Part shown: positions 9,163 to 64,000 of the stretch, in pieces | How the letters are laid out: every line of letters starts with the position of its first letter | Position numbering within the stretch: position 1 is the first letter of the stretch | Assembly: GCF_018977255.1 (NCBI RefSeq) | Contig: NW_024704743.1 | Location: 17,486,001-17,550,000, forward strand | Source: Callorhinchus milii | Taxonomy: Eukaryota | Reading direction: 5' to 3' | DNA: 64,000 nt | Made by a program: the position numbers and the translations under genes | The notes under the pieces: generated by a model | Seen by the model: the letters and a program-made list of their open reading frames with translations, nothing else | Told to the model about the DNA's origin: nothing | Database searches by the model: none

Positions 9163-9601
9163 GGAGTCCTGTAACTCAGTGGTTAGAGCACTTGCCTCAC
9201 AAGCGAGAGACCTTGGTTCGATTCCCAAGCATGTCACCTTGGAGCCAGTTCAGCTCTAAGGAAGCTCTGCTTACCAATCTCCTTCGCCCCACTCCCTGCC
9301 CACCACCTGAAATGTTGGGCAAGTTTCCTTACTCCACACGTCTCTATTTACCTAGCAGTAAGTAGGAATCCAATTGTTAGTTGATTGGCTGATCGCTTTT
9401 CCGGAGTAATAATTTCTTCAAAAAAAATAATAATAATAAATTGGTCACTTCAAAATAATAATAATAAATTGGTCACTTCAATCCACGATTGTTTGCCACC
9501 AATTGTTTGTCAATTCACTTTACAGTATATTCTGTGAAACGCTTTGAGATGTCTCAAAGACGTCATAAGGCGCTACATCAAATGCAAGGACTATTATTAT
9601 T
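9163..9601 (+). mobile_element. SINE, long subfamily, with foreign 75-bp insertion
   Basis: Head interrupted at 9230-9304; internal tandem duplication at about 9425-9481. Confidence 0.85.
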
Positions 9602-9831
9602 GTAGTACTTTTCCCATCAGGAAGATGCCTTAAGTGCTTCACTGGATACACTGAAAGCGCAATGGCTGTGTGTTTTGTGGACTTGTCTAAAGGCTGGCAA
9701 TATATCATTAAGCATGCTAGCGATGGACCAGATAATTGCTCTATGGATGCTTTCCATTACACTTTCCTTCCTACAACAGCCGCATAGCTGTTTGCTGACC
9801 TTATTTAAACATTCCATTTCACTGAGATAAC

Positions 9832-17172: not shown

Positions 17173-17346
<174 letters not shown>

Positions 17347-32374: not shown

Positions 32375-33719
<1,345 letters not shown>

Positions 33720-35419
33720 ATCTACATTTGTAAAAGTTTTTGTATTTTTGTTAGCTCTACTTGTAGGTGTCGTTACAGGTCTCCCCAATGGATCAACAAG
33801 TTTTGATAGCGAGTTGATTCAAAGGGAATGCAAATGCCTAATTTTAGTGCTTCTGATGGGATGGCACTAGCAGCCCGAGCAACAACAAATTACATTTGTA
33901 AAGTGCCTTTCACGTCGGGAGGACATACCAAGGCACTGGACACTCAGCGCAACCTGAATTAGGGAGTGTTTCCACTTCAGAGAGCTGTTCTGTGATTTCC
34001 TGCTGATGTTGATTAAAACATCTGATTAACAATGGAGTGGAACTACGCTGTGATGCTGTCTGCCTTGGCCCCTCCACCCCCATGATCTTCCACTTCTCAG
34101 TGATTGAACGACTTGCTGATACTCGCTGTGAAAGCTCACTGATCAATAATTGTCTAGTCAATAATTGTTTTGGGGCAAGCTTCTGGAGGATGACCATATC
34201 CCAGCAGAAGGAAAAGAGAATCAATCACGTTGTGTTCAGTTGAGGAACAGAAAAATTAACACAATTTTAAAAAAAAAATCAATTGCTCCTTGTTGACAAG
34301 TGTTTTTTACATTGCTTTATTTGATTAATATATAATAATAATAATGTTTCCCAGAGTGCTAGCTTTCATTATCCTGTGTTCAAATATTTTGGGTGTTTGG
34401 TATGCGGCCAGTGAATTTGAGTCACCAAACCCATACCTAATAGTCTAGTAGATTATTCTATTTAGTAACTGGTCATCTTAGTACCAGATCCTAACCCCCA
34501 GCTCGAGTCGAAATCCCTGACTGTCCAGTGCTTTGGGACATCCTCCTGATGTGAAAGGCGCTATACACATGTAATTTGTTGTTATAGTTATTGTTGGTGG
34601 TCATTTTTAAAGAAACATTTTGATCAACAACACTTTTTTCCCCTCCAGTTGCGTTTTCCCTATTTTCTTTGTCCCTCTCAGTAACCCTCAAACTCCAAGC
34701 GTTTTGTAATCGAGAATGAATACTTCGACTTCTCCTGATGTTGTTCTGAACCATCCACTAGGAAGTGCAATTGTGAGAAATCACTGCATTTTACATTGTG
34801 TAGGAGATGATGCTGACAGTAGACTATGCTTATGAGAAGATTGTGCCTTGTTTTTAATTTGAATACATTCCACAAATGAGAAATATTGCTCTTCCCAATG
34901 TGGAGTCATATTTATCGGCCGACATCAACAAATCTTAAAATATTGATTAGAATTTTCATAGGACAGAAGAGCACACAACTCCTCACAGTCTTTATATTTT
35001 GAGACACCGGTTCAAAGGCTAAGGTTGAGCAGAATATTGAAAAATTCTTAAATTCAACCTTAATTTGGTAGCCTGGTTCCTCGAGCCTTTGTAAAAGCAA
35101 CACAAAACTGGCTTCCAAATTAAAATCAAATCTGAAGAATTTTCCAAAATTCTGCACCATCTTAAATTTTACGAGAATGCTCTTCAGGTTAATACCATAA
35201 AGAATTGTGGGCCTCTGCTATCCAAATGAAGCCCCAAAATGACTAGAATTTTTGTTTATTTTCTAATTGATCGTTAATTTGTCAATGGCATAACTGCATG
35301 CAGTCGCTTTCGATCGGCACCTTCCGAACAGCTACTTAATTGACCAGTTTTAGTGAATTAATGGCAAGACATCCTCACTCTGCCACTGCATTGCATAGTA
35401 CAGTGAACTAGTTAATATT

Positions 35420-36546: not shown

Positions 36547-37544
36547 GTAAGAAATAAAAATTAAATCCTCATCTAAATCATTGCAAAGTCATCTAACATA
36601 TTTTCTCTCTGACCCATGTGCACTTGAATTCAAAGCTTTGGATGCGAACTTTGTAAAGAACAAAAAAAAGTTGTTGTTTTAGCTCTAAATAGACAACTGT
36701 ATGTTGAAAGATGTACTGTTTGATCAATATTGAGCACTGGACAGTCTCCACAAGCCGAGTCCAAATTAAAGCTTTTATATTTATAAATGACTAGCTGTAA
36801 AACAAGCTGAACCTATTATTTTCGAAGAATTCAGCCACAAACGTTGCCCTGTTTGGCCGGCCAGGAGTTTTGAGCACACAAAAATGTGGCTGCTGAGAAC
36901 TCGCAAGACATCAGGTATTTGTTTTTCCAGCAGTTTGGGAATAGAAACAACAATAAAATTACATTTGTATAGTGCTTTTCATGTTGGGACGACCTCCCAT
37001 GGCGCTGGAAATATCTTGTGGTTGGAATGGGAGGATAAAACAAAAAATTCCCTTTTTGCCAGGGTCCAGAGTCTAAATCATTGCAAAGTCATCTCCTAAC
37101 ATATTTTCTCTCTGACTTATGTGCACTTGAATTGAAACTGGCAATAAACCAAAGCATTTGAGACCCCAAAGTATGCTCTGGAGTTCTGCTGAAATTTTAT
37201 CCAACTACAACCACAGTTAAAGTCTTCACTGCTTGTCTGGTTCAGACATTATCTTGTTGCCATTGTTTTACTGGGTTACCAAAGGACCAAATGGCAAGGA
37301 GAGGGAAACATCATCCCCTTAACTAGATAATCTGCTAAGTCTATAAGCACAGTAGTTAATGCCTAAATCAGACAGTGTACTTTCATCAGCCCTGTTGTTT
37401 TTTAACATATGTACAGAACTGATTCAATTATGTAACATTGTAGGTGTAACTTACCCATTTCACAATTAAGTTTTTTTTATTTCTTGCATTGATCAACATT
37501 ATTCACTTGAATTTTGCTCACTGATTCAGTTTGATCTTTTTTAA

Positions 37545-44956: not shown

Positions 44957-45081
44957 TCAGGTTTTAACCTTTTCCAGCTCTCGCTCTTTGTTCACTTTAC
45001 GGAAAAAGGACTTGCCAAATTCATAGGAACTGATCATTATTGCACAGGCTGGGGCTACCTTCATTAATCGAGGGAAGAAAC
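44957..45081 (-). CDS. SLC25A40: SLC25A40 last coding exon to TGA
   Basis: cttcag|GT TTC TTC CCT CGA... [40 protein letters not shown]. Confidence 0.93.
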
Positions 45082-46012
45082 CTGAAGAAGAATAAAGTAG
45101 GAAAACAATTTAGCCCCAAGACAAACAATGCTCTCTCAATGAGAAATCGCTTACACCTTTAATTTTACAATCTATGAAGCACATATCTATCACTTTAGAT
45201 TAAACCCAAACCTGGAAACAGCATTCTAGACATGTGCTTTGAAATGGTTTTACTTTGGCAAAAAATAGTTTAACTACTTAATTTCAACTAACTTTCCTGA
45301 TTGTCATTGAATGCAGATGATTGGGAAACACTGTGACCAGAGACTGGACCAACATTTGCATTTTAGATCACTTCTTTGATTTTAATAACTGCTTGGGTAG
45401 TGAACAAGGCACTCAGAGGAGAAAATGGATCTTAAGAGTGAAATAAATAAAATGTACCCTGTTGTACTCAGAAGCCATATGGTACATGTTTAATTTATAC
45501 TGAAGCCATAGTATAAAGGCAGTTAGGGTGACTTTGAGTACAACAGAAGGCTTCTGAAGAGAGCATAATTTCTATACACAAAACAATCCACGTATCCAGG
45601 TGCTATTCTAATGATGGATCAGTCACAGCACGTGTCTAGATTGATGTTAATGGGTTTGGCTCAAATGGGTTAATGGGTTTGGCTCTGCTGATTTAAAACA
45701 TACAGCAGTCTGCATTCACATATCCACCGGCATCAACATTATTTTAACCCCATGTTAGTACACTGAAGCAGCACCAAAATTGGAAATGGCCGCTCCATGA
45801 GCAACTTACTGGAGGATCAAATATCCACAATTTAAACTAGCTGTTAATAAAATGTTTTAAAAGAAGAAATTGTAATAAATAACTCCCAACTTTTCTGCAA
45901 GAGCTCAATATAAACTTTGCTTCAGGAACTTTATTCGTTAGCTAATGTATTCATTCTGTACGTAGTTGAAAATGCTCAGCGAGTGCTTCAGGAAGCTCAT
46001 GATTGGACTCAC

Positions 46013-46090
46013 CAACAAATAAACCTGAATATCCAGATTCCTTAACGATTTGACTCATTATTACCCAGGTAGACATAGATGTTTTTGGTT
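46013..46090 (-). CDS. SLC25A40: SLC25A40 coding exon
   Basis: tttaag|...|gtgagt. QPKTSMSTWVIMSQIVKESGYSGLFVG. 78 nt. Confidence 0.9.
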
Positions 46091-46896
46091 CTTAAAAAGA
46101 AAATCAATCATTACAAAACTTCTAGATGATTGCACAGCATTGGACTTGACAATTATTTCTTCCTACAATTCTATACCAACAATTGATAATTTTTATCAAT
46201 GTACATAATGATTATTACAGTAAAGTTCTGTTCTTTAAAGATAAATGTTTCTCATTTGTGAGACAAGAGAAATGCACACAAAGCGAGTACAGTACTTCAC
46301 AAACTGAACGCTCAATTGGTAAAGTCTCAAATGGAACAGCAGTAAGAACAAGAGTAGCCAAAGTGAGAATGTCCATGTGTGTAGATGTTGACAAGTACAA
46401 GAGCATGCTTGTAGTAACCCTCTTCCCCCCATGGTCCTACGGACGACTAACACCCATTTATAACAACAACTTTACTTTTATCTAGCGCCTTTCACAAGGT
46501 ACTGGACAGTCCAGGCTTTGCACTAGGCGGGTGGGCGGGGGGGAAAGAGCCAAAGGGGCTACTTGCTCAAGTTACATTTGTTTGAATAAATGAATAGCCC
46601 GTTTGTTATATGTATAGCTAAATGCTAAATATTAGCTATAAATATCTTTAAAAAGCTATATATGTTTAATATATAAAAATACAAATATACATACTGTGAA
46701 AAGCTATACATTTTTAAATAACTTTATTAAATGTAATTTTAGCTAAAACTAAATAATTTAAAAAATCTAATTTTTCTTTGATTATCTTTCAGAGCTAATT
46801 ATTTTAAGTAAGATTTTAGAAATCTGTATAAATTTCACACCACATATAGTTCTAAATAATGAGTTTCAAAAGAAACATTTAAGAAATTACAAGTCA

Positions 46897-46953
46897 TAGA
46901 ATCACAGAATTATACAGCACAGAAGGAGGCCATTCGGCCCATCGTGCCTGTGA
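46897..46953 (-). mobile_element. CR1 tail-only insertion with TSD
   Basis: tagaatcacagaattatacagcacagaaggaggccattcggcccatc flanked by AAGTCA at 46891-46896 and 46954-46959. Confidence 0.85.
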
Positions 46954-46982
46954 AAGTCAAATTTCAAAAACAGAGAACATAC

Positions 46983-47064
46983 GAGTTAATGCTTCCAGCT
47001 CTCCAAGTGCAATCTGCCGTCGTGTTTTCACGACATCAAATGGTAGGGTGATGGTAGCTGCAAT
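46983..47064 (-). CDS. SLC25A40: SLC25A40 coding exon
   Basis: tttcag|...|gtatgt. [27 protein letters not shown], with carrier signature PFDVVKTR. 82 nt. Confidence 0.93.
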
Positions 47065-47077
47065 CTGAAAAGAGATT

Positions 47078-47570
47078 ACAATTTACATTTACGTAGCCAC
47101 TGTCATGTCAATAAGTCATCTCAAAACATTTCACATCTGGGCACCTGAGCTTGGGAGGGGGAGAGGAGAAGAAAGGGAACCGAGGAGGGTTTGGGGGTAA
47201 AGACTGAAAATGACCAAACCAAAAGCTCGGTTGAAAAGATAGGTCGCAAGGTGAAATTTAAATTGGGGAAATGGGCAAGACACAGGGAATCTGGGATGGA
47301 GTTCCAGCGAGCAGAGCTGGGATCGCTGAAAGCTCGCCCACCAATGGTGAGCGGATTGGGTGAGGAATACAAATCAAGCTATTGTTAGATGAGGGGGTGT
47401 ATGAGATTGCAAAGTTAGGGGTGAATCCATGGAGGGGATTTAAATGCGAAGACAAGGATCTTAAATTCAAACTGTTTACAGGATGGGAAGACAGTGGAGC
47501 TGCATGAGGGCAAGGGCACGATAGGATGAAAGCGTCTGATGTGGGAGAGGACATGGCCTACAGTTCTGGT
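47078..47570 (-). mobile_element. Old L2 3' fragment
   Basis: FEFKILVFAFKS and TIGGRAFS...RWNSIPDSL peptides on minus. Confidence 0.8.
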
Positions 47571-47811
47571 CGGTTTGCAACTTGTGTAGGAAAGTGCTTT
47601 ATTAAAAAAAGCTGATGTACAAGAGGTTACGACAGAAGGCAATAATTGAATTTTAATTTGATTAGCATGGTCTCATACTCTATTAAACACAGCAATTTCT
47701 TTATGGTTGGGAGGATGGAATGATCTAGTGTGGAAAGTGGTGAACATTGTTTTTTTNATAATGTTAGACAAGATATTCTGGAATTTCACAATAGAACTAG
47801 GAGAAAAAAAA

Positions 47812-48126
47812 TTATAATAATAATCCTTGCATTTGATATAGCGCTTTTCACGTCGGGAGGACGTCCCAAAGCGCTTCACAGAACACACTGTAAAGTGAAT
47901 TGACTGTATATTTGTGGGTGAACGTGGCAGCCAATTGCGCACAGCAATGTCCCACAAATAGTCGTAGATTGAAAATGACCAATTTATTATTGTTTTTGGT
48001 TTTGGAGGGATTATTATTAGGCGTGTGGAGTAAGGAAACTTGCACAAGGTTTCGCCCTGCCTGGAATTGAACTCAGGTCTCTCACTTGCAAAGCGAATGC
48101 TCTAACCACTGAGCTACAGGTCTCCA
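47812..48126 (-). mobile_element. Young SINE, short subfamily
   Basis: Near-identical to 30645-30966. Confidence 0.92.
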
Positions 48127-48244
48127 CGGCTTTACCTTCAAGAGATAAGCTAGGTAAAACCCATGATGAGGCAAATTGTATAAAGCCTCCACAAAAAGCA
48201 TGCTTTTCCTCATTCTAGTTTTTCTTATGTAACATTTTATCTAA

Positions 48245-48670
48245 TAAGATTTACATTTCGTATAGTGCTTTTCATGTCAGGAGGATGTCCTAAAGCGCTT
48301 CATAGGATATACTGTATTGGAGTGACTATGATTTGAGGGTAAATGCAGCAGCTAATTTGTACACATAAAGTCCTACAAACAGCCATGAAGTGAATGACCA
48401 CATTTTATTTGGGGATTGTTGACGAGGACACTGGGAGAAAGTCCCTTCTCTTTCGAATAGTGCTACATTTTAACATACGCCTGAACAGGCACAGAGGGCC
48501 TGGATTTAACATCTCATCCAAAGGATGGTATCTCCCAACAATGCAGCATCTTCCCCCCCCACCCAGCATTCCATTGGAGCGGAAACAGACAATTTGGGTG
48601 GCAAGTCCTAACATGGGGCTTGAATTCATAACCTTTTGACCCAGAGGAAAAAATGCTGCCAATTGAGCCA
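48245..48670 (-). mobile_element. Ancient Deu-domain SINE, near full length
   Basis: Minus strand reads tggctcaattggcagcat...tctgggtcaaaaggttatgaattcaagcccc...ggatgagatgttaaatccaggccc...cccagtgtcct...gctgtttgtagg, then the L2 tail. Confidence 0.75.
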
Positions 48671-49268
48671 TTCTGATTTATAACAGGCACTTTAAAAATC
48701 AAACTTGACTTTCTTATTAAGTCCTACTGCACTAATAAATCATCTTGAGCCAGAGGTGCATTTGTTTCTAAAAAAAGCTGTAATTCAATTGAAATTTAGA
48801 AAAACCTGAATGTTTAAGGAAAAGTCATTATTATAATACACTGGAGCCATCAAACAATTTTAACTTGTACACAAATATGAGCAAAAAACAATTTACATTT
48901 ATACAATTAAGATGTCCTCCTGATGTGAAAGGTACAATATAAATGTAAATCTTTATTTTATTGTACTACTAGCATTAATATATTAAAATGTGCCCATAAA
49001 ACACTTTACAATATATCCTGTGAACCTCTCTGAGATGTCGCAACAACGTGTTAAGGTGCTATATCAAATACAAGGATCATTTTTATTATTAAATATTGAT
49101 TACAATTATTCTACAATAAAATAACATTAATAATTATTATGATTCAGTGCCTTGGGATGTCCTCCCGACGTGAAAGGCGCTATACAAATGTGATTTTTAT
49201 GAATTTCTGGTTCAAATGAACTACTTAAAATCACCTAACAGCAGAAGGTTCCGTTACTAGAAACTTAC

Positions 49269-49378
49269 AGAGCCTGATGCTGCTCCAGAAGCAAAACTTA
49301 TCATGAAGGTTGGCTCACTTAGATTGCGCTTCTTGCACAACGCATTCTTCATCAGTTCATAGTTAAACCAGTAAGTTG
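49269..49378 (-). CDS. SLC25A40: SLC25A40 coding exon
   Basis: ccacag|...|gtaagt. ATYWFNYELMKNALCKKRNLSEPTFMISFASGAASGS. 110 nt. Confidence 0.93.
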
Positions 49379-49589
49379 CTGTGGGGACAGACAGTGGAAG
49401 TAAAAGTCTGCCGCATGGCTTTCCATTTGCAGCAGTACAGCTTCTCATTACTAACCAATAATGCTTCAACAAGACCCGAAAGATAGAGTGCAAGGGGAAG
49501 GGTTAATTTTGTTTCAGTAACTGCAGTTTTAAAAACAGTAAATTTTCAGGCAAGATGAAAGAATACGTTTTGAGCAAACACAGATGATA

Positions 49590-49960
49590 ACAATGCCAAC
49601 TTGCATGTACACAGCGCCCTTCCCATGGGGTAGCGTCTTGGAGCATTTAACAAAGGCAGAACCTGATGCCAAGCGGGGGAGAGAAGAGGTGGTCCTAAGC
49701 ACAATCGAACAGGAAGGTCTTCAGGTGTAATCTAAAAAGAGGATAGGACGGGGCAAAGCAGAGGCATTGAAGGAGAGAGCTCCAAAGTTTTGGGGCGTAC
49801 TGGGTGAAAGCACAGCCAACAATGGTGGAGAGGGGAGGGATAATCAGGAGGCCAGAGCCAGCCGAGTGGAGGTGGTGGGTGGTGGAGTGGGGAAAAAGAA
49901 GGTCAAAAAGGTAGAGAGGTGCCAGGGTGTGAAGGGATTTGTAATGAGTGTGAGGATACA
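49590..49960 (-). mobile_element. L2 3' fragment with second tail type
   Basis: KSLHTLAPLYLFDLL...APKLWSSL...LKTFLFD on minus; tail ends tgcaagttgg. Confidence 0.8.
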
Positions 49961-51493
49961 CACTCGTTTGCAGCTTTTTAAACAGGACTGTTCCAATAGA
50001 TAATAATTGTAAGATGGTTCTGGGGTTGTTCTAGTTTTGGAGTGAATAGACAGGTCTTTCTTACAATTCTTACATTTTTCCCAGTAGCTCACGGGTTCTG
50101 CTAAATTTAGTACAAATATTCAAACAAAATTTGGCACACATTAATTGTGCTATTTTAAATTGAAAATAATTTACATTTCAGAAGTACAAGTAATCAGTTA
50201 ACTGCAGTTGCGTATCAAACGTTGAACAGTAAACTCCTAATAACTCATCATTCCGAGGGTAAACTGCTCAGTGATGAGTTATGAGGAGTGGTGAGTTAAG
50301 CGTATGTATAAAAACATAAATAAATGCAGCCGGGATGCTGACAGCACAATGACAAATTAAACCAGAGTCGTGTTATCAGGAATTTATTTTGTTACAAGAT
50401 TTCAGCAGTTTGGGGAAAATAGCTGAATGGGAAACATTTGTATTGAAATGTTAACCTTGCATATATTACCGATTAAACGATAATCTGTGTTATAATGAGA
50501 ATCCATTGTATTACATTAATTGAACGGCTTCAAAAACGCCCCAATACTTATTTTATTTAAACCTTTGCATTTCTGTAAAAATGCAATGATTATTATTATT
50601 TGTTTTCAAAGAGAATATTAACTATCAGAAGAATATTAAATAGTTGGGGAGCGAGTGGAAGAGTAGGACTAGGCTGGATGACTCATGTGGAGAAAAAACA
50701 CCAGCACACAGGTGATAATCCGTTTCTGCATTGTAACCTTTCACATTTTATAGAGTAAATTTGTTTGCAAGGTTTCATATTTTCTGATTTCAAGTTATTC
50801 TAAAATCCCACTAATATAAAAAAAATCCATTGCTCCATATATTAATACAATACTTCTTTTTAAAATTATAAATCTGAACAGGAATTCTCAATAAACATGA
50901 GAAATGGAACAATGTCAACTGATCAGACTGGAGGGAAATTTTAAAGTGTGGATTTAAAAATTACTCGGTAGCAACAGCATTTTTGAGATGGAATCATTCC
51001 AATAACCTTCAGAATGAATGAATGGGATTGAACTGTACATACATTGGCCTGAAAATATTTAAATTCAACATTTTTGTACTTTTGCAGTAAATCGTGTCAT
51101 TATCTTCAAGTTCAATTTGTGAATAAAGCAGGCCTTCGAGTTTCTACCATCCCCTGGTCTGAAGCTGACAGTCAGCAGTGGTTCAGATCCTGCTCAACAG
51201 GATCTTTACATTAAGACCAGCCAACTAACTATTTCTTTTAATAGTCTAGATCCAGTGAAATGGATTAAAGGTAAAATGAAAATTTAAATTTTGTGGATTT
51301 TCAGTATTATGGAGCCACTTATTTTAGCACAACTGACCCATTCAGTTAATACGCGAGTATCTATTAGAATTAGACTTTTTTGTATTCCAAGATACTTTAA
51401 ACAAAAAATAAAGTTAAGTTGCTAATTTTATCATTACTGTGCAGACCTTTGCTGGTAAAGCGCACAGATGTTCTATTAAAACACATGACTGAC

Positions 51494-51667
51494 CTGAGAA
51501 AGGCACATCTCGAAGTACTGTGGGACCCCACCCCCTCCAGAGGGAGAGCCAGCCATCCTGCCGTACAGCAATCCGAACAACAGTACCTAGTTGCTTATAT
51601 GTCAGTTTACGAGATTGCAATTTTGTCCTCATCAGCTCCAATGGACTTATAACAGACACTGCACCCA
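51494..51667 (-). CDS. SLC25A40: SLC25A40 coding exon
   Basis: tttcag|...|gtcagt. [58 protein letters not shown], with carrier signature PLELMRTK. 174 nt. Confidence 0.93.
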
Positions 51668-51949
51668 CTGAAACAAACAACAACAAATTGCATTTATTAT
51701 AGCATCTTTCATGTCAGGAGGATGTCCCAATGCCCTGAAACATAAGAAACAAAATGTGTTCAGTTCTTAAAGCAGTACCATATCTGTCCGAGCTGCGGAC
51801 AGGAAGATGGTGGCAATCCTCTCATGCATATCACGCTGGGGTGTGTTGCCAACCAGAAAATTTGGAGTGAGTTCCTGGTAGTTACCATCCTCTTAGTGAG
51901 GGCTCAAAACCGTGCTTGTCAGATGCCAAATGACCAACTACTGACTATC

Positions 51950-52360
51950 CTCCTGATGGGGGGGGAAGTATGTAGATATTAAAGAGGACAGAGCCCTGAG
52001 GCACGTCACAAGTGACGTTGGGAGGACGTCGCAGGGGTAATAATGAAACAGGCAAGGATAAAAACGTGAAGGTGGAATTGAGAAGATGATGGAGAAGAAT
52101 AGAATGGTCAACAATATTGAAGGGGGCAGAGAGGAGGAGTTCATACAGGAAGAGGAAAGAGCGAAGCCGGGAAGCAGTTACTCATCCAGTCTTGTTCCTT
52201 GGAGAGGAAAGGGAGGTTGGAGGTGGCACAATCAGGGTAAAGGGATAGGTCAAGGGAAAAAATTTTGCGGAAGAGGGCTGTTTTGAAGGGATGGGAATTG
52301 GCTGGTGGACAAAAAGAGTTACGATGTCTGCAAGCAGGGTGGCAAGGAGGTGGAGGTTTA
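51950..52360 (-). mobile_element. Decayed internal L2 fragment
   Basis: Purine-rich plus strand homologous to the reverse complement of the long L2 (about 62130-62520). Confidence 0.55.
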
Positions 52361-53394
52361 CAACCTTACCAACCTGCTCAGTTAATTCTGTTCTAGCTTT
52401 CTGAAGTTCTCAAAATAAATGTAAAAGCAGTAAAATCTTCTCTGCAGCAGACTTCTTATAGTTTCCTAACCTTTCCAATGGTGCCACCTTGTGGCATTTC
52501 CTTTGCTAAATTCCTATTATCCTGAACTATACACTAACTGGGTGACTCTCACAATCCTCTGCCAATGGTTCTCTGAGTCGCCAATATGAAGTATATAGGA
52601 AAGGGGGTAAGGAAATCTCCCTTTTGGGAAGCCAAATCTCTATAAGGCTGGAAATTCCACAGAATTGAAATTCAGCATCAGGAAAGTAGAAACATAATAA
52701 TAATGCTTGCATTTGGTATAGTGCCATTCATGTCAGAAGTCCCAAAGTACTTCACAGGAATCGAATGACTACATTTTTATAGACAAACACGACAGCTCAA
52801 TTGTGCACAGCAATATCCCACAATCAGCCATATAATAAATGACCAATTTTATTGGGGGATTGTTGGCCAGGATATAGGAAGGAACTCCCTCTCTTTTCAA
52901 ATAGTGCAATGGCATCTTTAACATCCACTTAACAGGCAGACAGGATCTTGGCTTAACAACTCATCTCAGCACTCCTAGAAGGGTGCTATGTAAGTTCAAG
53001 TCGTTGTTGTTGTTGCTGGGTTTGTGCATGCAGCAGACATAAAACTGACCCCAAAAAACCTTGGTTTTGATTAAAAACTTGTTATGAACAATTACCTAGT
53101 TTAACAAGTAAACACATCTTAATTGCCTACCACCTTTTTACCCTATTACATGTTGTATTGTATGATGTATAATTATTGTGCAGGTCACTTCTCTATTCAC
53201 TGAGTCATGGCTTGTTGCTTGAGTTAATATTTAACACTTTACCCCTCTTGGGAAGAGAAAGTTAGGGAATGTAATTGAGAAAGTATAGGTTAGTTTATCC
53301 CATCACTCACATAGCAATTGAATCAATTATATTAAAAACAGGAAGAAATCTAATGAATTGTGACATCTGTAGATCCTGTTTCCTATAGGGTAAT

Positions 53395-54590
53395 AATAAT
53401 CATAGAATTATACAGCACAGAAGGAGGCCATTCGGCCCATCGTGCCTGTGTCGACTCTTTGAAAAGAGCTATCCAATTCAATCCCACACCCCGTGCTCTC
53501 CCCATAGCCCGGCAAACTTGTTCTCCCAAAATAATTATCTACTTCTCTCTTAAAAGTTGTTATCGAATTGGCTTCCACCCCCTTTCAGGCAATGCATTCC
53601 AGATCTGAACAACTCTCCGTGTGAAATAATTTCTCCTCACCTCCCCTGTTTCTTTCAACAACTATTTAAATCAGTGTCCTTGGGTTACCAACCTACCGGT
53701 GGAAATAATTTCTCCTTGTTCATCCTATCAAATCCCCTCATAATTTTGAAAACTTCTATTGAGTCTCCTCTTAACCCTCTCTTCTCCAAAGAGAATAATC
53801 CTAGCTTCTCTAGTCTCTCCTGATAGCTGAAGTCCCTCATTCCCGGTATCATCCTGGAAATCTCCTTTACTCCTAAATCTCCTAAAGATTCTTCATAATT
53901 TCCTGACTTTTATATTCTATGTTCCTATTTATAAAGCCTAGTATCCCATAAGCTTTTTTATTAAAAAAAACAGCTTTATCTACCTGTCCTGCCATCTTCA
54001 AAGATTTACTTATATGACCCCCAGATCTCTCTGTTCCTTCACCCCCTTTAAGATTGTACCATCGGCTTATATTGCCTCTCCTCATTCTTCCTCCAAAATG
54101 CATCACTTTGCATTTCTCCACATTAAACTTCATCTGCCACCTGTCTGCCCATTTTACCAGTCTGTCTATGTTCATTTACAGTCTGCTACCATCCTCCTCA
54201 CTGTTTACTACTTTTCCTAGCTTAGAATCATCTGCAAACTTGGAAATTGTACTCCCTATACCCACATCCAGGTCATTTATATAGATCAAAAACAGCAGTT
54301 GTCCCAATACTGACCCGTAGGGGACATCACTGCACACTTCCCTCCAGTCAGAAAAACAACTGTTCACCACCACTCTCTGCTTTCTGTCTCCCAGCCAGTT
54401 CGGTATCTATGCTGCCACTGTCCCTTTAATACCATGAGCTTCCATTTTGCTTAGAAGTCTCTTATGTGGCACTTTATCAAACGCCTTTTTGAAAATCCAT
54501 ATAAACAACATCAACTGCACTACCTTCAACCACCCTCTCCGTTACTTCATCAAAAAACTCTATCAGGTTTGTTAGACATGATTTGATTTG
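53395..54590 (-). mobile_element. CR1 LINE 3' fragment, same subfamily as 32648-33719
   Basis: ISKFADDSKLG and WADRWQMKFNVEKCKVMHFG. Long near-identical stretches shared with the 32.6 kb copy. Confidence 0.93.
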
Positions 54591-55500
54591 ATACCTAGAC
54601 TATATGAGGCAACTCTCCACATGGGTATCATTGAAATCAAGAAGTTACTGTGTGGTGAATGAAGCAAGACCCTGTTCAGAAGTGCTGCCTTTGTCAAAAA
54701 CGTAAGCAAGCACTGGCTAAGCACGAACACTATAACCCACTAAAGGCCTAAACATTATTTGGCTGGTAGAGTAATCAATATAATTTGGAGAATATTTTTG
54801 CCACTATGCAAACTTACTCCTGAAATTAAATAAGCATATTTTAAAACTGTTCAAACGTCAAATATACCTAATTAATAGTTATCTCCCCAACTTCAATGTT
54901 TTTAAAGCAGGGAATGCTGTGCATTTTACAGCAGAATTATAAGACACATGGAAATACCAAAGCGGGTACAAATACTTTAAACGCAATCAGTGGAAGCTTA
55001 TGTAGTGGAAATGGCCCTTGAAGTCTTAGAAACAATAAATGGCTAACTGCATATCTTATCAGCAGCCAATGTTGGTAACTAATTATGACAACCCACTACA
55101 AATTCTAAGAAAACAGTTTGTAATAAGTAAATAATGCAGCAGACATAAAACTGACCTTTGAAATAGTTTGAAATGTCAAAATAGGGCTATTCTAAAACCT
55201 TGAGAAAGGAGGTATGATATAAATCTGAAAATAAATTATTTCTAACACATTGGCACAGTTGTTTGAAAGTGAGGGAACATACACACAAGCCCATCAAATC
55301 TGAGCAGAATTGCAACATCTTCACTGCAATGGTCCATTTGTTAAGAAAAATTCTAGGGCTATACATTAAAAGCCTACTACAAACATCTTGTCCATGGAAT
55401 CTTTAACTAAATTAATTCAAATGTGGTTTCCAGCATTTTGGACCTGTGGAATAAATCTGATTGCATCTCTGATTTTGTAATCTGAAAGCAGCCCCAGGCC

Positions 55501-55829
55501 CATTTGCAAGGGCAGCAGATCCACAAAAAAATGACAGCTTCTGTAGCCAGCTATCCACTGGTACCACCAACCACCTCACCTAAGGCAGCGCCCACTATTA
55601 ATGAGTAAGAGCAGGGGCAAGCTGTCTCCTTCTACCTCAACAAGCAACACTGTCAGCCTTCAGTTGTGCCAGAAGAGCATCATCAAGGAATAGCAGCTTT
55701 GTTGAGGTAGAAGGAGACAGCTTGCCCCCTGCTCTTACGCACTGCCTTAGATGAGGTAGTTGGTGGTACCAGTGGGTAGCTGATTACAGAAGCCTCCATC
55801 TTGTTTATGGATCTGCTGCCCTTCAAATG
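55501..55829. repeat. Long inverted repeat, MITE-like foldback
   Basis: Arms at about 55501-55643 and 55699-55829 are complementary along most of their length. Confidence 0.85.
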
Positions 55830-56496
55830 AATGCATTAGCACCTTTTACTTTGGCCAAGATAATGGCTTTGATGTGGTCGAGAAGGAACAACACCACTTT
55901 GGGCCCCTAGGAGTTGAAAAGGATATTAAATGGAGCTAGAAAGAGCTCCATTTAATATAAGCATTACTAAAGCTTGAACATAAGGAGCCATGCTTCTATA
56001 TATTATTTCTTGCTGTGTTTTGCTGATTTTTTTTAAACAATAGATATAATTGTCCATGAACTTATTTACTACATTTACTTTGCTGTGTAGTGACAAAGGA
56101 GTTGCTGATTTGATGACTTTTGTGCACTGAGACAATTCTACCACCAATCAGTACTATCTTAATTTACTCAAACTGAATATTTTTTGACCTACAATATTAT
56201 GATGTCTTGTCATACGTTAATCCTGCACTATTAATTAGGTAGTGGCTTTATTAATAAAGGTCAGATCACCCCTAGAGAACATTAATAGTTGACGTCACAA
56301 CATTTACTTTAAGAATCAATCCAATTAAAGCTCATTGAAGAGCAGACAACTATCTTTCTATTTACAGCTTTAGTAACTTTTCACCATTCATTCCGCAGAT
56401 GTCAACAGGTGTGGAGGGGCTGCATGAAGGACAAGAAGGCACCAGAGTGTCAATTCATTGCCTTACAGTACATGTCATTAACATAATATACAGTAA

Positions 56497-56810
56497 AAGT
56501 CCTTGCATTTGATATAGCGCCTTATCCCGTGGTTAAGACATCTCAAACCACTTCACAGAATATACTGTAAACTGAATTGACTATTTTGTGGGCAGCCAAT
56601 CGCGCACAGCAGTGTCCCACAAACAATCGTGGATTGAGTGACCAATTTTTTTTTGAGGGATAGCAATCCGCCAATCGACTAACAAACAGGTTCCGACTTA
56701 CTGTTAGGTAAACAGAGGGGTGTGGAGTAAGGAAACTTACCTAAGGTTTTGTATCACCAGGTAATTAAACCCAGGTCCTCTCACTTGCAAAGTGAGCGCA
56801 CTAACCACTA
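56497..56810 (-). mobile_element. SINE, long subfamily
   Basis: Head-to-tail homology. Confidence 0.85.
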
Positions 56811-56889
56811 CATATTAATTTCCAGGTGAACTCGACGAATGGTTTCCAGTCTTCCGTGGCCACCTTCTCTTTTGTAAATGCTATTACTG

Positions 56890-57410
56890 GGCAGATTGTT
56901 GAGCTGTACTCTCGCACACCAGGCTCCACGACCCCATCACTCCCACCCTCGCCTGACTCCACTGACTCCCCACTCCCCCCGGAGGATCAATTTCAAGATC
57001 CTTGTCCTCACTTTCAAGGCCATCCATGGTCTTGCCCCTTACTACCTCTCTGACCTGCTGACTCCCTACCAACATGCCCGCTTCCTCCATTCAGCGGGCT
57101 CCGGTCTGCTCAATGTCGCCTGCCCTACCATTGGTGGCCAGGCTTTCAGCCACTCTGCCCCCACACTCTGGAATTCCATCCCACGGTCCCTTCGCCTCGC
57201 TTCCTCCCTCGCCTCCTTCAAAGCCGGTCTCAAGATCCTTCTCTTCGATCATGCCTTTGGTCGCCCTTCCACCTCTCTACCTTCCCTCACCCCTACACTA
57301 CCCCTCTCCCATACTTGGGCCTTGACACCTGACTGTTCAGCACTTTGGGACGTCCTCCCGACGTGAAAGGTGCTCTATAAATGTAATTATGTTGTTGTTG
57401 CTGCTGCTGT
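56890..57410 (+). mobile_element. L2 3' fragment
   Basis: RINFKILVLTFKAIHGLAPYYLSDLL...APTLWNSIP plus L2 tail. Confidence 0.9.
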
Positions 57411-58072
57411 CCAAATATCCTGGATATCGGGACTCCATGCAATGACTGGTTTAGGCCATTGCTGGTTCCTATATTCTGCAAATATTATGAATGGAATTTG
57501 ACAGCACCCAGGGCTAAGATTTTTTAAAAATTGCATTACTCTCACAGTGTTTCGTTACCTGGCATCCCACCATGGAAAAAAGGCACAACCTTGATCTTGT
57601 TCAGCACATGGAATCCTACTGCCAGTAGGTCAGGAATCAGACCTACTCAATTTACTTGATTATTAATAATTATTATAATTTTACAAATGATGACTAATAA
57701 TTATAACGAATATGATTCCATGCCATATTACAATGGTGAGATGTTTCAAAGTGATTTTCAAAATTTACTGTAAAGTGTAGCGAATGTGTATTGTGTAGGC
57801 AAATGAGGCAGCAAATTTGTGCAGCTTCCTACAAACAAATAGCCATGAAGTGAACAACCAATTTTATGTGGGGGATTCTTGGCCAGGACACTGGGAGAAA
57901 CTCCCATCTCCTTTCCAATAGTGCCATAGGATCTTTAACGTCCACCTGAAGATAGACAGACCCTAGGTTTTTGGTACTATTTCAAGGAGAAACTGGATGT
58001 CAAAATGAGCAGGAACAAAAATAAGAGAGATTTGTACAAGTTTAGAAACATGCACAGTGAGATTCAACTTAC

Positions 58073-58197
58073 CTCGAGCTACAGCTCCTGCTATCAGCGG
58101 GATATAGATGCCATTGTAACCCAGTTTATGCTTTATAAAAACCCGTAATTGATCATAAGTAGTAAAATAAATAACTGTAGCAGGTACAGCCATTATT
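58073..58197 (-). CDS. SLC25A40: SLC25A40 coding exon
   Basis: ttcag|...|gtaagt. IMAVPATVIYFTTYDQLRVFIKHKLGYNGIYIPLIAGAVAR. 125 nt. Confidence 0.93.
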
Positions 58198-58239
58198 CTG
58201 AAAATAAAAAAACACAATTAAAAATGAAGAACTGTATAT

Positions 58240-59520
58240 AAAAAAATCACACTATTCACATCAGGAGGATATTTCAAATGACTTCATACAACTGTGAGCT
58301 CAAGCTGGTGCAAGAGTGCATTGGGGTGGGGGAAAGGGACACGCGGATGAGAGTAAGGTCAAACATTCGGCCTAAAGTTGAGTTTTCCAGATGGACAGAG
58401 GGGTCAAGGCAGAGGGAATTCCAAAGAGCAAGGCAGAATGGTTGAAGGCATGACCAATAATGGTGGGGCGGAGAATGTGAAACAGACTGGTGATTGCAAA
58501 GCGAGAAGGCAGCGGTTGGGGCGGCAGGGCTGCAGGAAGCCGCAGACATTGGCTAGGGAGAAGCCATCCAGACATTTCAAAATGAGGAGGAAAATCTTGA
58601 ATCTGATCTGTGAGGGGACAGGGGTCAAATGAGGATGGGGCTGAACCTAAGAGGTGATAAAAGCATTGAGGATCTCAGCAGCCTTGGGTGAGAGATAGAA
58701 ATGGAGGAGAGTGGTGTTGTAGAGGGAAAGCAGAGCTAGTGAAAGCCTGGATGTAATGTATAAAGGATAGCCGGAGTCAAAGAAGACACTGAGGCTCAAT
58801 GAAATAGAATGATCACCCGTGTAGGTTGATGTGGTCAGTGCCTAAGGTAAGAACCCACTGACTGGAGCCAGCAGGAGAGTCTTAGTCTTAGCCACATTGA
58901 GCTGCAGAAAGATAAAACTCACACAGATGTCTGACAGGCAACCTGTCAGAACAGTGGCCCTGGAATCAAACGAACAAGCAGAGAGATAGTTTGGATGGAT
59001 GTCATCCACAAACATGTGAAAGTGGACTCCATGCTTATGTTTGATGTCACCAAGGTGGAGCATATAGATGGTGAAGAAAGGAGGGCCAAGTAAGAGCCCT
59101 GAGGAATGACACATGACTGAGCTGTGGCAGGAGGAAAGAAGCCATCTGAGGAGACAAAGTGAAGACACCGGGATGGTAATAGTGAAACCAGGAACAGACA
59201 TAGACATGAAAGTGGAGCAGGATGGAAAGAAGGTGAAGAATGATGGAATGGATGATCGATAAGGACAAGGATCCCTGGTTGCAGATGGGGAGAATGTTGT
59301 TGGTGAAATTGACTAGGGCAGTCTTTGTGCTATAGGGAAGACTGAAAACCAGATTGGAAGAACTAAAAGAGTGAGTTGTGGTAGAGGAAGAAATAAAGCC
59401 GAGTCATCTCAGCTATCAGCACCTTGAAAAGGATGTTAGAAATTGGGTGGTATCTGGAGAGCATAGAGGGTCCGGTAAGAGTTTCTTGAGGAGGGGATAA
59501 CGAATGTAGGTTTGAGAGGA
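58240..59520 (-). mobile_element. Older L2 fragment (RT to 3' end)
   Basis: Minus-strand peptides LGPPFFTIYMLHLGDI...FHMFVDD and QIRFKIFLLILKCL. Degenerate tail near 58250. Confidence 0.85.
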
Positions 59521-59769
59521 AATAACATCAATAAAACACATTTAAATAAATTCAGGCAATAGATTCCTTTATAAAAAAAGCTAATAAAAGGCTTGTCTTT
59601 GTTTGATTCATGTTTAAAAATTAATTTACTCTATATGTTACACCATTTACCTATGAACTAAACTGTATAATTTTTTTGAATAGACTTTTTTTCTACCCAT
59701 CAATTTCTGCAATTAATTATGAAAACCTAAAAGGAATGGTCACAATTACCTGCAATTGAAGTCCTTATC

Positions 59770-60200
59770 CCCAGCAGGTTCCACAAGCCCTTATCCACAC
59801 TCAACTCCACTTTCCAAACCCTAGCAGATTTGATTCAAGATTCTCGTCCCCACTTTTAAATGTCTCTATGGCCTTGCCCCACCTTGCAATTCTACTGCCT
59901 TGGCCACTCCGCTCATCAAACACTGGCTTGCCTTTACATCCCCGAACCGCTCCACCCACTATTTGTCGGTGGGCCTTCAATTATCTGTTCTCTGGAACTC
60001 TACCCGGGGTCCTTCTGCCTTGCTCCTTCCCTCTCTGCCTTGAAACCCCATCTTACAACCAATTTTTTGGACCATCTATCAGCCATCATTCCCCTCTTCT
60101 GTTTAGCTTCCCCATGCCCTAGCTTGGGCTCCCAGTGAAGCCCTTTGAGATGTCCTTCTGATGTGAAAGGAGTTGTATAAAGATAAATTATTGTTCTTGT
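59770..60200 (+). mobile_element. L2 3' fragment
   Basis: Homologous to other L2 3' ends in the window; tail tgagatgtccttctgatgtgaaagg. Confidence 0.8.
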
Positions 60201-60499
60201 ATTATTCACATCATTAATTTCAAAACAGTCCTGTCAAAAACATGGGAGCAGGTCACCTTCTGCCAGAGTAGAAGGAATGGGCAAGATGGAGGATACGACC
60301 AAAAATTAGCTCCTATTCAATCTTTGGCTAATTTGCATTCATTTGTTCTTTTGAAACTGACCTCAGTGCCCCAAATTGATGCGTCTCAATTAGCCTCGCT
60401 TATATCGTGAAGAGTTTAGGAAATAAAACATGATTTTAATTGCAGTTTTGAAGTTCAGATCTATAATTCCCTACCCTTATAAACATTAATTAAACTTAC

Positions 60500-60567
60500 A
60501 GAGTTGGTGGCAGTCCACTCCAGAGTGATTTTATACCCTCAAAACGAATAATTTGGAAGAGTGCATC
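60500..60567 (-). CDS. SLC25A40: SLC25A40 coding exon, first one found in window
   Basis: ttgcag|...|gtaagt on minus. DALFQIIRFEGIKSLWSGLPPTL. 68 nt. Confidence 0.92.
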
Positions 60568-61619
60568 CTGCAAGACAATAACATTTTTTTCACATAAATT
60601 CATTCTTCGTGAATAAAGAACATTACAAATAGGAAAAATGCAATACAATATCAATTTATATAGTGCCTTTCATGTTGGGAGGATGTCTCAAAGCTCTTGA
60701 TAAGGTTGGCTAAGCACCTGATCTAGGGTTGATATGACCAAAAGTACAGCCAAAGAGGTACAAAAGGAACATTCTGAGATAGATATTTGTAATGTGCTTA
60801 ATAAAATTTGTTTTAGCAAAAATAAATCTGGTACATTGTGAAATCAATTCAACAGGACATTCACAACACTTTTGTCTGCCATGGGCCTATGGTCACCCCA
60901 CCCCCAGCATCTAATTCTGCCACAATGCAGAGCTTCGAGACCCTATCCAGCATGAGCTACGCTATATAACTGGAAGTTGTTGAACCTTAAACAATCTTTA
61001 CATTAAAAAATCTTGCATTTCATATAGACCCCTTCCGCTAAGAAAACATCTTAAAGTACTTCAAATGATATCCTGTAAACTGTATTTTGTAGATGAATGC
61101 AGCAGATTTTGACATTAATGGAAACGTGGGCCTCTGCAAGTATTTTTGACATGAAGTGACCAAGACATCCAAAGACAACTTAAAACATGCCTTATTCTAC
61201 TCAGGAAAGAGTCTGAACTTATAACCAAACCTTATGTCCTGCTGCTATCGCCTTGATAATAATACTTGCATTAGATATAGCGCTTTTCACATCTAGACAT
61301 CTCAAAGCGCTTCACAGAATATACTGTAAAGTGAATTGACTGTATATTTGTGGGGAAAATGCATAAAATGTAATAAACTTAAATTTAAACAAAATTTGAT
61401 AAATTTAATAAATGAATAAACAAAAATTTACTTTCAAATACAGTCACTTCACTTTACAGTAAATTCTGCAGGGCGCTTTGAAACTATCTGACAACAACAA
61501 CATTACATTTATAGAGCACCTTTCACGTCGGGAGGATGTCCCAAGGCGCTGGACAATGTAATATGGCACTATATCAGTGCAAGATGATTATCATTATTGT
61601 TTTATAGTTGACAAATATT

Positions 61620-63930
61620 CTACATTTACGCTCCTCCACAACACTCTCTCCACCACACTCAATGCCCTTGCCCCCATCAGCTCCCGAACTGCCTCCTATT
61701 CCCGATCCTCACTCTGGTTCACCAGTCACCTCCGCTCACTCAAGGGCCAGGTGCGGTCTGCCAAATGCACTTGGCTCAAATCGGGCCTAACGGTCCACCG
61801 GCACACCTGGCTGGACCACATCAAAACCTACCGCTTCACTCTCGCCTCGGCCAAATCAACAACAACAACAACAAGATTCCATTTATAAAGCGCCTTTCAC
61901 GTCAGGAGGACGTCCCAAGGCGCTGCACAGTTGGGTCATGACCCGAGCAGGGGGGAAATGGTCAGGGTGAGGGAAGGGAGGGAGCAAGGAGGGGGGAAAT
62001 GGTCAGGGTGAGGAGAGGGAAGGGAGGGAGCGAGGAGGGGGAAGAGGAGGAGAAATCATTCGTCTCGGGGAAATCATTCGGGGAAATCATTCGTCTCCTC
62101 CAGGTTAATCCTGGAGGTGCAAGGGCAACCCGAGGCTCCTGTTCTCTACCACCAACAGGCTTCTCCGCCCTCCCCGCCATGCCTTGCAGATTCCTTCCTC
62201 CGACTCCCACTGCGAGGAAATGCTGTACTTCCTTGAGTCCAAAATCGAGGGAATCCGCTCAGTTGCCACTGCCCTCCCAACTTCCACCTACACCCTCCCA
62301 CCCCACTACCCATCCCTCCTTCCACACCTTTGAACCTGTCACCCCTCCACTATCATCACCACCATATCCTCCATGAAGCCCACCACCTGTTCCCTGGACC
62401 CCATCCCCATCCTTAAATCCCACCTCCTTGCCCCACTACTCACCGATATCATCAACCTCTCTCTGTCATCTGGTACTGTTCCTTCCCCCCTCAAAAAAGC
62501 CACTATCACCCCCACCTTGAAGAAACCTTCCCATGACCCATCACAGCTATCCAGCTACCGGCCCATCTCCAACCTTTTTCTGTCCAAGGTCCTGGAGAGC
62601 TATTGCCTCCCAGGTTTGCTCTTTCCTCTCCTCCTATTCCCTCCATGAGCCCCTCCAATCGGGTTTCCCTCTGGTCAAGGTCACAAATGATATCCTGACC
62701 ATGTGTGATCAGGGCTCCCTCTGCCTCCTCATCCTCTCCTCTGCTTTTGACACTGTGGAACATTCAATTCTCCTCCACTGCCTCTCATCCTACCTCAATT
62801 TTCAAGGTTCTGTCCTTGACTGGTTCAGGTCCTACCTCTCACACCGCTTTCACTTTGTCTCAACAAACGGCTTCTCCTCCAGCCCCTCATGCAGCGTTCC
62901 TCAGGGCTGTCCTCGGTGCCCTCCTCTTCACCCTCTACATGCTCACCCATGATGACATCATCTGCAGACATGGGGTAAATTTCCACATGTATGCGAATAA
63001 CACCCAACTCTATCTCTCTGCCTCCACCCTCAACTCCAGGACTACTGGCATCCTGACCGACTGCCTGTTCGACATCAAGTCCTGAACCAGGGACAACTTT
63101 CTCCAGCTGAATGTCACCAAGACCGAGGCCCTCCTGATTGGCTCGCGCCAGTGTCTCCGCACCTCGGGCGCTGGCAGCATCAGAATCCACGGCTGCACAC
63201 TCAACCTCACTAAGCCAGTCAGGAACCTGGGTGTCTTGCTTGACCCTGAACTGTCCTTTCTTCCCCTCACATCCGCACCATGACCGACACTGCCTACCAC
63301 CACCTCCGCAACATTGCCAGACTCCGCCATTGCCTCACCCCTCAGGCTGACGAAACCTTTACCGAAGCATTCTTCACATCAAGGCTCGATTATGGAAATT
63401 CCCTCCTCATCGGCCTTCCCAACTCTTCCCTTTGCAGGCTGCAGATCATCCAAAACTCTGCAGCTCGTGTACTCTCACACACCAGACTCCGTGACCCATC
63501 ACTCCCACCCGTGCCCCACTGGCTCCCCATCACTCAGAGGATTGAATTCAAGATTCCTCATCCTCACTTTCAAGGCCATCCATGGCCTTGCCCCCTCCTA
63601 CCTCTCTCACCTGCTGACTCCCTACCAACCTGCCTGCTCCCTCCATTTAGCAGGCTCAGGCCAGCTCCATGTCGGCCGTCCATTGGTGGCCAAGCTTTCA
63701 GCCTCTCTGCCCCCACACTCTGGAACTCCATCCTACAGTCCCTTTGCCTCACTTCCTCTCTTGCCTCCTTCAAGACTGGTCTTAAGGCCCTCCTCTTCGA
63801 TCGTGCCTTCGGTCGCCCTCCCACCTCTCAGCCTTCCCTCACCCCATGCTCTGGCCCTGACCGCTGCCTGTCCAGCGCCTTGGGACGTCCACCTGACGTG
63901 AAAGGCGCTCTATAAATGTAATTTTGTTGT
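61620..63930 (+). mobile_element. Long 5'-truncated L2 with frameshifted RT
   Basis: Peptides MKPTTCSLDPIP, YRPISNL, SAFDTVEHSILL, FHMYANNTQLY (decayed YADD) and SRLDYGNSLL. Ends in gggacgtccacctgacgtgaaaggcgct...(TTG)n. Confidence 0.93.
61858..62052 (-). mobile_element. L2 3' end nested antisense inside the long L2
   Basis: (CAA)n plus the reverse-complement L2 tail interrupts the host L2. AAATCA occurs on both sides. Confidence 0.8.
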
Positions 63931-64000
63931 TTATTCATGAAATGTCTATTCACCTCACACTTTAATAAGCAATCATTTTTATGGATATTCTTCTTCTGTG

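Follow-up and report, generated by a model that had tools for sequence, protein, structure and literature searches.

An L2-like retroelement tail in the splice acceptor preceding a coding exon of SLC25A40 in Callorhinchus milii

Insertions of L2-clade retroelements have been described for ZfL2-1 and ZfL2-2 (PMC4245944). According to the available part of that report, target-site duplications (TSDs) of L2 elements peak at 3–5 bp, those of ZfL2-1 comprise 1–8 bp, and microhomology at the 5' junction is frequent. The retroelement copy addressed here, which precedes a coding exon of SLC25A40 in Callorhinchus milii (elephant shark), shares with these insertions a likely duplication in the range of 1–8 bp, 5' microhomology, strong truncation and a microsatellite tail. 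Unlike them, it has a working 3' splice site as target, and the TGTYCAG of the element is itself acceptor-like. For the genome of C. milii, the available sections of PMC5499810 describe L2-2_CM and CmiSINE/SacSINE1-CM at very high copy number, with an L2 LINE tail common to two SINE families of more than 500,000 copies in the genome; related LINE and SINE 3' ends are likewise found in the DNA analysed here. The SINE matches treated in these sections concern 3' UTRs and miRNA precursors, whereas splice acceptors, at issue in the present case, are not discussed there.

Retroelements also enter acceptors in NF1, where, in the excerpt at hand (PMC3219598), 4 of 14 Alu insertions are located in the AG or the pyrimidine tract, likewise with a TSD. 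These insertions arose de novo and cause exon skipping and disease, whereas the SLC25A40 insert is old, occurs in a further sample and is accompanied by normal splicing. In introners and transposon-derived introns, as portrayed in the accessible text of PMC11282704, the TSD supplies the downstream AG, so that the element is spliced out and tolerated, as here. In contrast to introners, our retroelement extends an existing intron, is not a TIR DNA transposon and makes no new intron. Finally, mammalian L2 and MIR elements serve as sources of polyadenylation signals (PMC2553571, available portion). A sense L2 tail with AATAAA near its end is shared with our copy. In the latter, however, AATAAA is private and only a candidate signal, and an internal exon begins 25 nt further on. 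Every part of the account given below is already known from other systems; among the titles listed by literature searches mostly outside subscription journals, none concerned the SLC25A40 insertion locus.

We propose, with a probability of roughly 0.7, that a LINE tail was pasted in front of the exon long ago by target-primed reverse transcription, that the downstream splice site is used, likely by means of a branch point and a pyrimidine tract provided by the LINE, and that the upstream site is an unselected leftover.

Locus, layout and identity of the insert

The analysed stretch (the window) comprises 64,000 nt of C. milii contig NW_024704743.1. Translation of exon 51494–51667 is 100% identical to C. 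milii SLC25A40, all five members of the protein cluster carry this name, and the protein possesses three Mito_carr repeats. Seven SLC25A40 exons could be placed at 44960–60567 on the minus strand. RUNDC3B adjoins the gene at 17203–37691 on the plus strand, an arrangement that mammals have as well. Protein identity and this neighbour uphold the gene assignment of the first-pass annotation, which had been made from the sequence alone. RUNDC3B comprises nine coding exons and is convergent with SLC25A40; its exon 32476–32623 is missing from the annotated isoform P0127.

The insert resides inside a 6405-nt SLC25A40 intron, and exon 51494–51667 is preceded by two acceptor-like sites at a distance of 67 nt from each other (Table 1). 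The octamer TGTTTCAG occurs twice on the minus strand with 59 nt in between, and a third TGTTTC directly precedes the first of the two copies. The first-pass annotation had reported the pair of octamers, a 59-nt insert, a spacing of 67 nt, an in-frame stop codon and an AATAAA, all of which were recovered from the sequence as described. Counting from the used acceptor, positions -1 to -8 belong to the host and -9 to -67 to the LINE, with the upstream octamer beyond.

Table 1. Positions of the insert, the two acceptor-like sites and associated features in the window.
Feature	Position	Strand	Remark
Upstream TGTTTCAG	51735..51742	-	AG at 51736-51735 is the orphan acceptor; duplicated target, or 5-nt duplication plus the element's own CAG
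Displaced pyrimidine tract, presumably the original one	51743..51762	-	only weak branch-like motifs upstream: CTGAA (A 51760), TTTAA near 51767
5'-truncated 3' tail of an L2-type LINE, sense to the gene	51676..51734	-	relative to the window majority, 9 of 47 nt substituted and an additional A
In-frame TGA, reached only via the upstream acceptor	51709..51711	-	from translation
CTGAC, branch-point candidate (A 51714, -47 from the used site)	51713..51717	-	from family CCGAC by CpG decay
One extra A making AATAAA (51698-51693) and TAAT, branch-point candidate (A 51697, -30)	51693..51699	-	
(TTG)n microsatellite tail, distal part of the working pyrimidine tract	51676..51686	-	
Downstream TGTTTCAG, used acceptor	51668..51675	-	contigs and annotated proteins
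SLC25A40 coding exon	51494..51667	-	174 nt; approximately P0121 residues 153-210
Upstream SLC25A40 exon, donor side	58073..58197	-	protein mapping and spliced contigs
Next SLC25A40 exon	49269..49378	-	spliced contigs
Degenerate long family copy that contains reverse-transcriptase remnants	62414..63935	+	reference for family identity

The insert resembles many repeat tails in the window, with best BLAST matches at 83–85%. Profiles built from the window copies yielded 89 matches, 43 of which reach at least 30 bits, and the tails form two related groups ending in (ATT)n or (GTT)n, respectively. The insert scores 48.8 bits for the (GTT)n group versus 40.3 bits for the (ATT)n group. Long copies of the (GTT)n group extend upstream into degenerate frames resembling reverse transcriptase. 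One of five LINE frames matched RVT_1 (E=6e-4; 20 bits, i.e. under the curated Pfam cutoff of 29.6), and no Pfam match was obtained for the other four. Two long copies contain sequence reminiscent of an ORF2 end, presumably that of L2. L2 LINEs terminate in a stem-loop followed by a microsatellite tail. Indeed, (TTG)n tails are present in the family copies, and the sister copy at 63860–63935 forms a 3' stem-loop in folding predictions (z -1.69; 14 of 200 shuffles equally good), while the corresponding stem has decayed in the focal copy (z 0.45). The previous assignment to an L2-type tail is supported by window copies that have the same tail and continue into a long element with reverse-transcriptase remnants. 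The insert corresponds to the 3' terminus of a retroelement that is very common and appears L2-type by sequence, in keeping with the L2 LINE whose tail two SINE families share in this genome (PMC5499810).

Relative to the window majority, 9 of 47 sites of the insert differ (95% interval 9–33%), about half of them at CpG, and one A is additional. This divergence marks the insert as old, with an interval too wide for finer dating. The insert is also present in another sample: in the DNA-like run X4, which differs from the window elsewhere, a contig (50907–51727) extends from the exon across 60 nt of the 67-nt segment. A decayed SINE body upstream of the tail (51743–52300) was considered and rejected, as no match there was continuous with the tail; the matches at 52044–52258 represent a separate part of a long LINE copy.

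Several other repeats of the window deserve mention. Short (GTT)n copies are located at 29516–29582, 33880–33949, 36948–37009, 46462–46513, 49143–49196 and 61492–61558, and approximately half of the examined (GTT)n copies measure only ~55–70 nt, their 5' ends coinciding with the base of the 3' stem-loop. Truncation may be favoured at this point, or the copies may represent a mini-element consisting of the tail alone. At 61464–61594 and 9527–9649, inverted pairs of retroelement tails are arranged end to end and are capable of forming hairpins. Another LINE family, presumably CR1-like, is represented by two copies of a ~1-kb repeat with frames resembling reverse transcriptase (32647–33716, 53398–54410).

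Origin of the doubled octamer

The first-pass annotation had interpreted the two octamers as an 8-bp TSD that includes the acceptor AG. At the 3' side of the insert, the (TTG)n register is broken exactly at 51675, as expected of target sequence, and in 48 contigs derived from other repeat copies the match ends at 51676. The 5' bracket is 3–7 nt short or ambiguous, with element-like sequence entering the upstream octamer. At the corresponding position, CAG is found in each of the 13 sister copies and TGTNCAG in 11 of them. The upstream AG may therefore derive from the element rather than from the host.

The duplication was assessed by a junction-anchored test comprising eight short copies, picked by eye and evaluated according to our own junction rule, with 56 mismatched pairs of 5' and 3' flanks as controls. 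The focal copy exhibits a repeat of 8 nt, whereas none of the 56 mismatched pairs reached at least 7 nt (maximum 6). The seven other short copies displayed repeats of 4, 5, 5, 4, 6, 0 and 4 nt, i.e. at least 4 nt in six of seven versus 19 of 56 controls (P=0.008). Short duplications and 5' microhomology thus characterize the focal family, within the published range of L2 elements. The picture was less clear when the test was not anchored at the junctions: matches of at least 8 nt to the focal 5' flank were obtained for 3 of 40 unrelated 3' flanks, and repeats over 41 copies of both tail families were like the null.

Alternatively, the insertion could have been blunt, with the upstream octamer consisting of the element's TGT(C/T)CAG plus an extra T, or of CAG following a chance TGTTT. 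Such an origin would be in line with the motif in the sister copies and with the outcome of the loose test. Moreover, TGTTT is common (63 in 17 kb of the gene strand), and in seven other copies the truncation point lies no more than 9 nt from CAG, with TGTCCAG retained in four of them, indicating that truncation near CAG is a habit of the family. However, a blunt insertion requires an additional indel or a chance 5-mer that is the same as the downstream site, and the anchored controls, the register break at 51675 and the short duplications left by the family elsewhere speak against it. We consider it unlikely and the duplication quite probably real. The simplest reading of the sequence would be either a 5-bp duplication (TGTTT) combined with CAG microhomology or a full 8-bp duplication, and the upstream AG may accordingly stem from the host or from the element. 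Hence, the TSD itself is likely to hold, and it is the assignment of the upstream AG to the host that is weakened.

Under target-primed reverse transcription, the first nick would have occurred just before TGTTTCAG, and the (UUG)n tail of the element would have primed on TGTT. Reverse transcription presumably stopped after ~60 nt, where the element's TGT(C/T)CAG resembles the target overhang TGTTTCAG, and annealing at this motif could have joined the 5' end, leaving a duplication of 5–8 nt. In the resulting arrangement, as seen in the sequence, the old tract ends in an orphan AG, and LINE sequence occupies the acceptor of the exon from -9 to -67.

An independent insertion with its empty site is found at 4076–4165, where the head of a SINE-like element harbours a short L2 tail with the 4-nt repeat GAGT; the uninterrupted version of this SINE-like element is located at 2864.

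Splice site use and strength of the two acceptors

Splicing was followed in contigs from 3 of 10 RNA-like and 1 of 4 DNA-like runs, out of 24 runs of the one organism. The RNA status of runs X5–X14 is a prediction, backed for three runs by GT..AG joints over introns of 2.1 and 6.4 kb. Joining of exon 58073–58197 to 51667 produces the open carrier frame ...AVAR-VGAV.... Indeed, the spliced joint 51667–58073 was present in all three RNA-like runs examined, which originate from two studies, at depths of 35.9, 114.1 and 17.1. It reads CT..AC on the plus strand, corresponding to GT..AG on the gene strand. In each of these runs a single contig extends across 58073–58197, 51494–51667 and 49269–49378, and the GT..AG joints of the three exons had a depth of 0 in the DNA-like run examined. 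The sequence AVARVGAV, reflecting the downstream junction, is contained in 5/5 annotated C. milii proteins, and no insertion at this exon junction was detected in the five shark proteins compared. The agreement of annotated and shark proteins at the junction identifies 51667 as the ancestral exon boundary. The donor in use is the old one at 58073, and the insert has made no new intron. In the assembled transcripts seen, splicing is normal at the LINE-backed downstream site.

Neither a 58073–51734 joint nor an exon-skipping joint nor a 67-nt deletion was among the rows listed, which comprise 15 joints and leave aside 438 further joints, 16 indel rows and 1737 loose ends; since contigs also lose minor forms, use of the upstream site may have escaped notice. 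Seven further RNA-like runs exhibited a word share of 0.23–0.27 (exon-only 0.33; 67-nt extension 0.49) and were not counted as evidence. Short joints at 51697–51730 were dismissed as cross-matches among repeat copies. At window position 51606, inside the exon, run X14 shows T>C at full depth; as the third base of a codon is concerned, the allele is likely synonymous.

To compare the two sites, acceptors were scored with a crude model trained on the 15 other acceptors of the window. The acceptor at 51734 obtained 11.0 and ranked first of 905 intronic AGs (next 6.5); the used site scored 7.6, and the leave-one-out maximum for the 15 other true acceptors was 10.3. The top rank argues for a displaced original tract, as expected of a displaced real acceptor, and agrees with the earlier proposal that the upstream site retains this tract in orphaned form. 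Together with the earlier position of the site in the transcript, it leaves room for leaky or even substantial upstream use that is hidden by nonsense-mediated decay (NMD). It is no sign of selection, because the neighbouring insert has changed at less than one fifth of its sites. According to the available part of PMC7951965, it is common for strong sites to remain unused next to authentic sites that are weaker.

For the downstream site, the annotation had postulated that the (TTG)n tail acts as the pyrimidine tract. Indeed, positions -9 to -20 of the used acceptor are LINE tail, and the tail plus host TGTT provide 12 pyrimidines among the 16 positions from -20 to -5. Between the two sites, YTNAY/TNAY motifs are restricted to CTGAC and TAAT, at -47 and -30, respectively. 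The upstream site has no YTNAY/TNAY at the usual distance, but TNA-type motifs only. Both the candidate branch point and the tract of the used site are likely LINE-derived, judged by their sequence. Preference for 51667 might then result from the retained ancestral exon and the better branch-point candidates, consistent with the contigs, in which 58073 is spliced to 51667. The idea that the L2 tail family as such constitutes an acceptor cassette was discarded, as 13/13 sister copies score only -6.4 to 0.8.

A structural explanation for a silent upstream acceptor was also considered, according to which the first 13 nt of the insert pair with the upstream acceptor and form a 9-bp hairpin that hides its AG, hence tolerance of the insertion. 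The isolated hairpin is predicted at -6.3 kcal/mol, only 14 of 945 AG-centred windows fold equally well, and it appears in the MFE and centroid structures of the 101-nt region. However, its pair probability amounts to merely ~0.25 in a 240-nt context, and the used site is predicted to be equally paired (0.13–0.15 unpaired vs 0.03–0.16). Moreover, a stronger fold is predicted for 1 of 15 true acceptors, sister copies form a like hairpin (-1.7 to -6.2), suggesting that it is inherited, and the z-score of the 101-nt region is 0.08. As modelled, folding does not separate the two acceptor sites, and silencing by the hairpin appears improbable.

Stop codon, AATAAA and the meaning of the insertion

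A premature stop located more than 50 nt before a junction triggers NMD. In agreement with the first-pass annotation, translation from the upstream acceptor runs into the TGA at 51711–51709, which is located 215 nt before the next junction and thereby exceeds this distance. The AATAAA at 51698–51693 is followed by CA ~23 nt on (51670–51669) and then by the GU-rich start of the exon, and is predicted to be unpaired. It is present as noted before, but it is a private one-base insertion rather than a family feature: 0/13 sister copies contain it, their counterpart mostly being TATAAA or TACAAA, and seven contigs of other repeat copies have one base fewer at 51697. AATAAA occurs about once per 1.2 kb on the gene strand.

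The annotation had gone further and proposed an exapted tail with a built-in switch, in which the upstream acceptor (leading to NMD) or the AATAAA (leading to intronic polyadenylation) would be used, regulated and selected to lower SLC25A40. The intact upstream site, the strongest acceptor-like site of the gene's introns, would suit such a switch, as would the position of the stop codon, the AATAAA with its downstream elements and the polyadenylation signals that mammalian L2 tails provide (PMC2553571, available portion). Against it stand the use of 51667 in the spliced contigs and in all annotated proteins, the privacy and commonness of AATAAA, and the modest change of the insert, about half of it at CpG, which lets the orphan site survive without selection. 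Additionally, the accessible part of PMC1876488 describes conserved alternative 3' splice sites as depleted of extensions that shift the frame. We regard the switch as very improbable. The normal splice form is the sole one shown, nothing here indicates regulation or selection, and the terms exapted and switch are unsupported. Use of the upstream site, with about even odds of being detectable, would yield mRNA with a premature stop that is cleared by NMD as noise.

Most likely, the insertion is an accident that has been tolerated; a switch is not demonstrated. In a constitutive coding exon, the branch-point region and most of the tract appear to have been swapped for LINE sequence with splicing kept, and the case poses the question how the downstream acceptor prevails although the upstream one looks stronger. 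The import would be larger if L2 tails favoured acceptors genome-wide or if the upstream site were regulated, neither of which is shown.

Repeated donation of 3' splice signals by L2 tails in C. milii, with the displaced SLC25A40 acceptor as an NMD-coupled dial on a mitochondrial carrier, would be a far-reaching extension for which we see very little probability. In such a scenario, (UUG)n would prime on T-rich tracts, TGTYCAG would anneal to acceptor ends and thereby truncate the copy, and CpG decay would convert CCGAC to the branch point CTGAC. Within the window, four of seven SLC25A40 acceptors have a sense tail ending 11–79 nt upstream, and no such tail lies within 100 nt of any of the nine acceptors of RUNDC3B. 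Enrichment within 100 nt of acceptors amounted to 4/16 (P=0.017), or 3/15 when the focal site was removed (P=0.065), and to 1/15 (P about 0.5) at two stricter score thresholds. This weak enrichment near SLC25A40 acceptors is only a lead. The tails at the other three acceptors, 47064, 58197 and 60567, are degenerate sense L2/SINE tails on the minus strand at 47081–47135, 58250–58288 and 60646–60700, which end 17, 53 and 79 nt upstream, respectively.

A further structure was noticed in an SLC25A40 intron, where 55501–55829 forms a 329-nt imperfect palindrome with a self-identity of 74%. In run X11, for which there is no matched DNA, nine plus-strand T>C differences (A>G in gene orientation) are located at 55552–55784 at a depth of 5–6, and X4 is devoid of them. 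The pattern looks like A-to-I editing of the hairpin, with alleles as the alternative.
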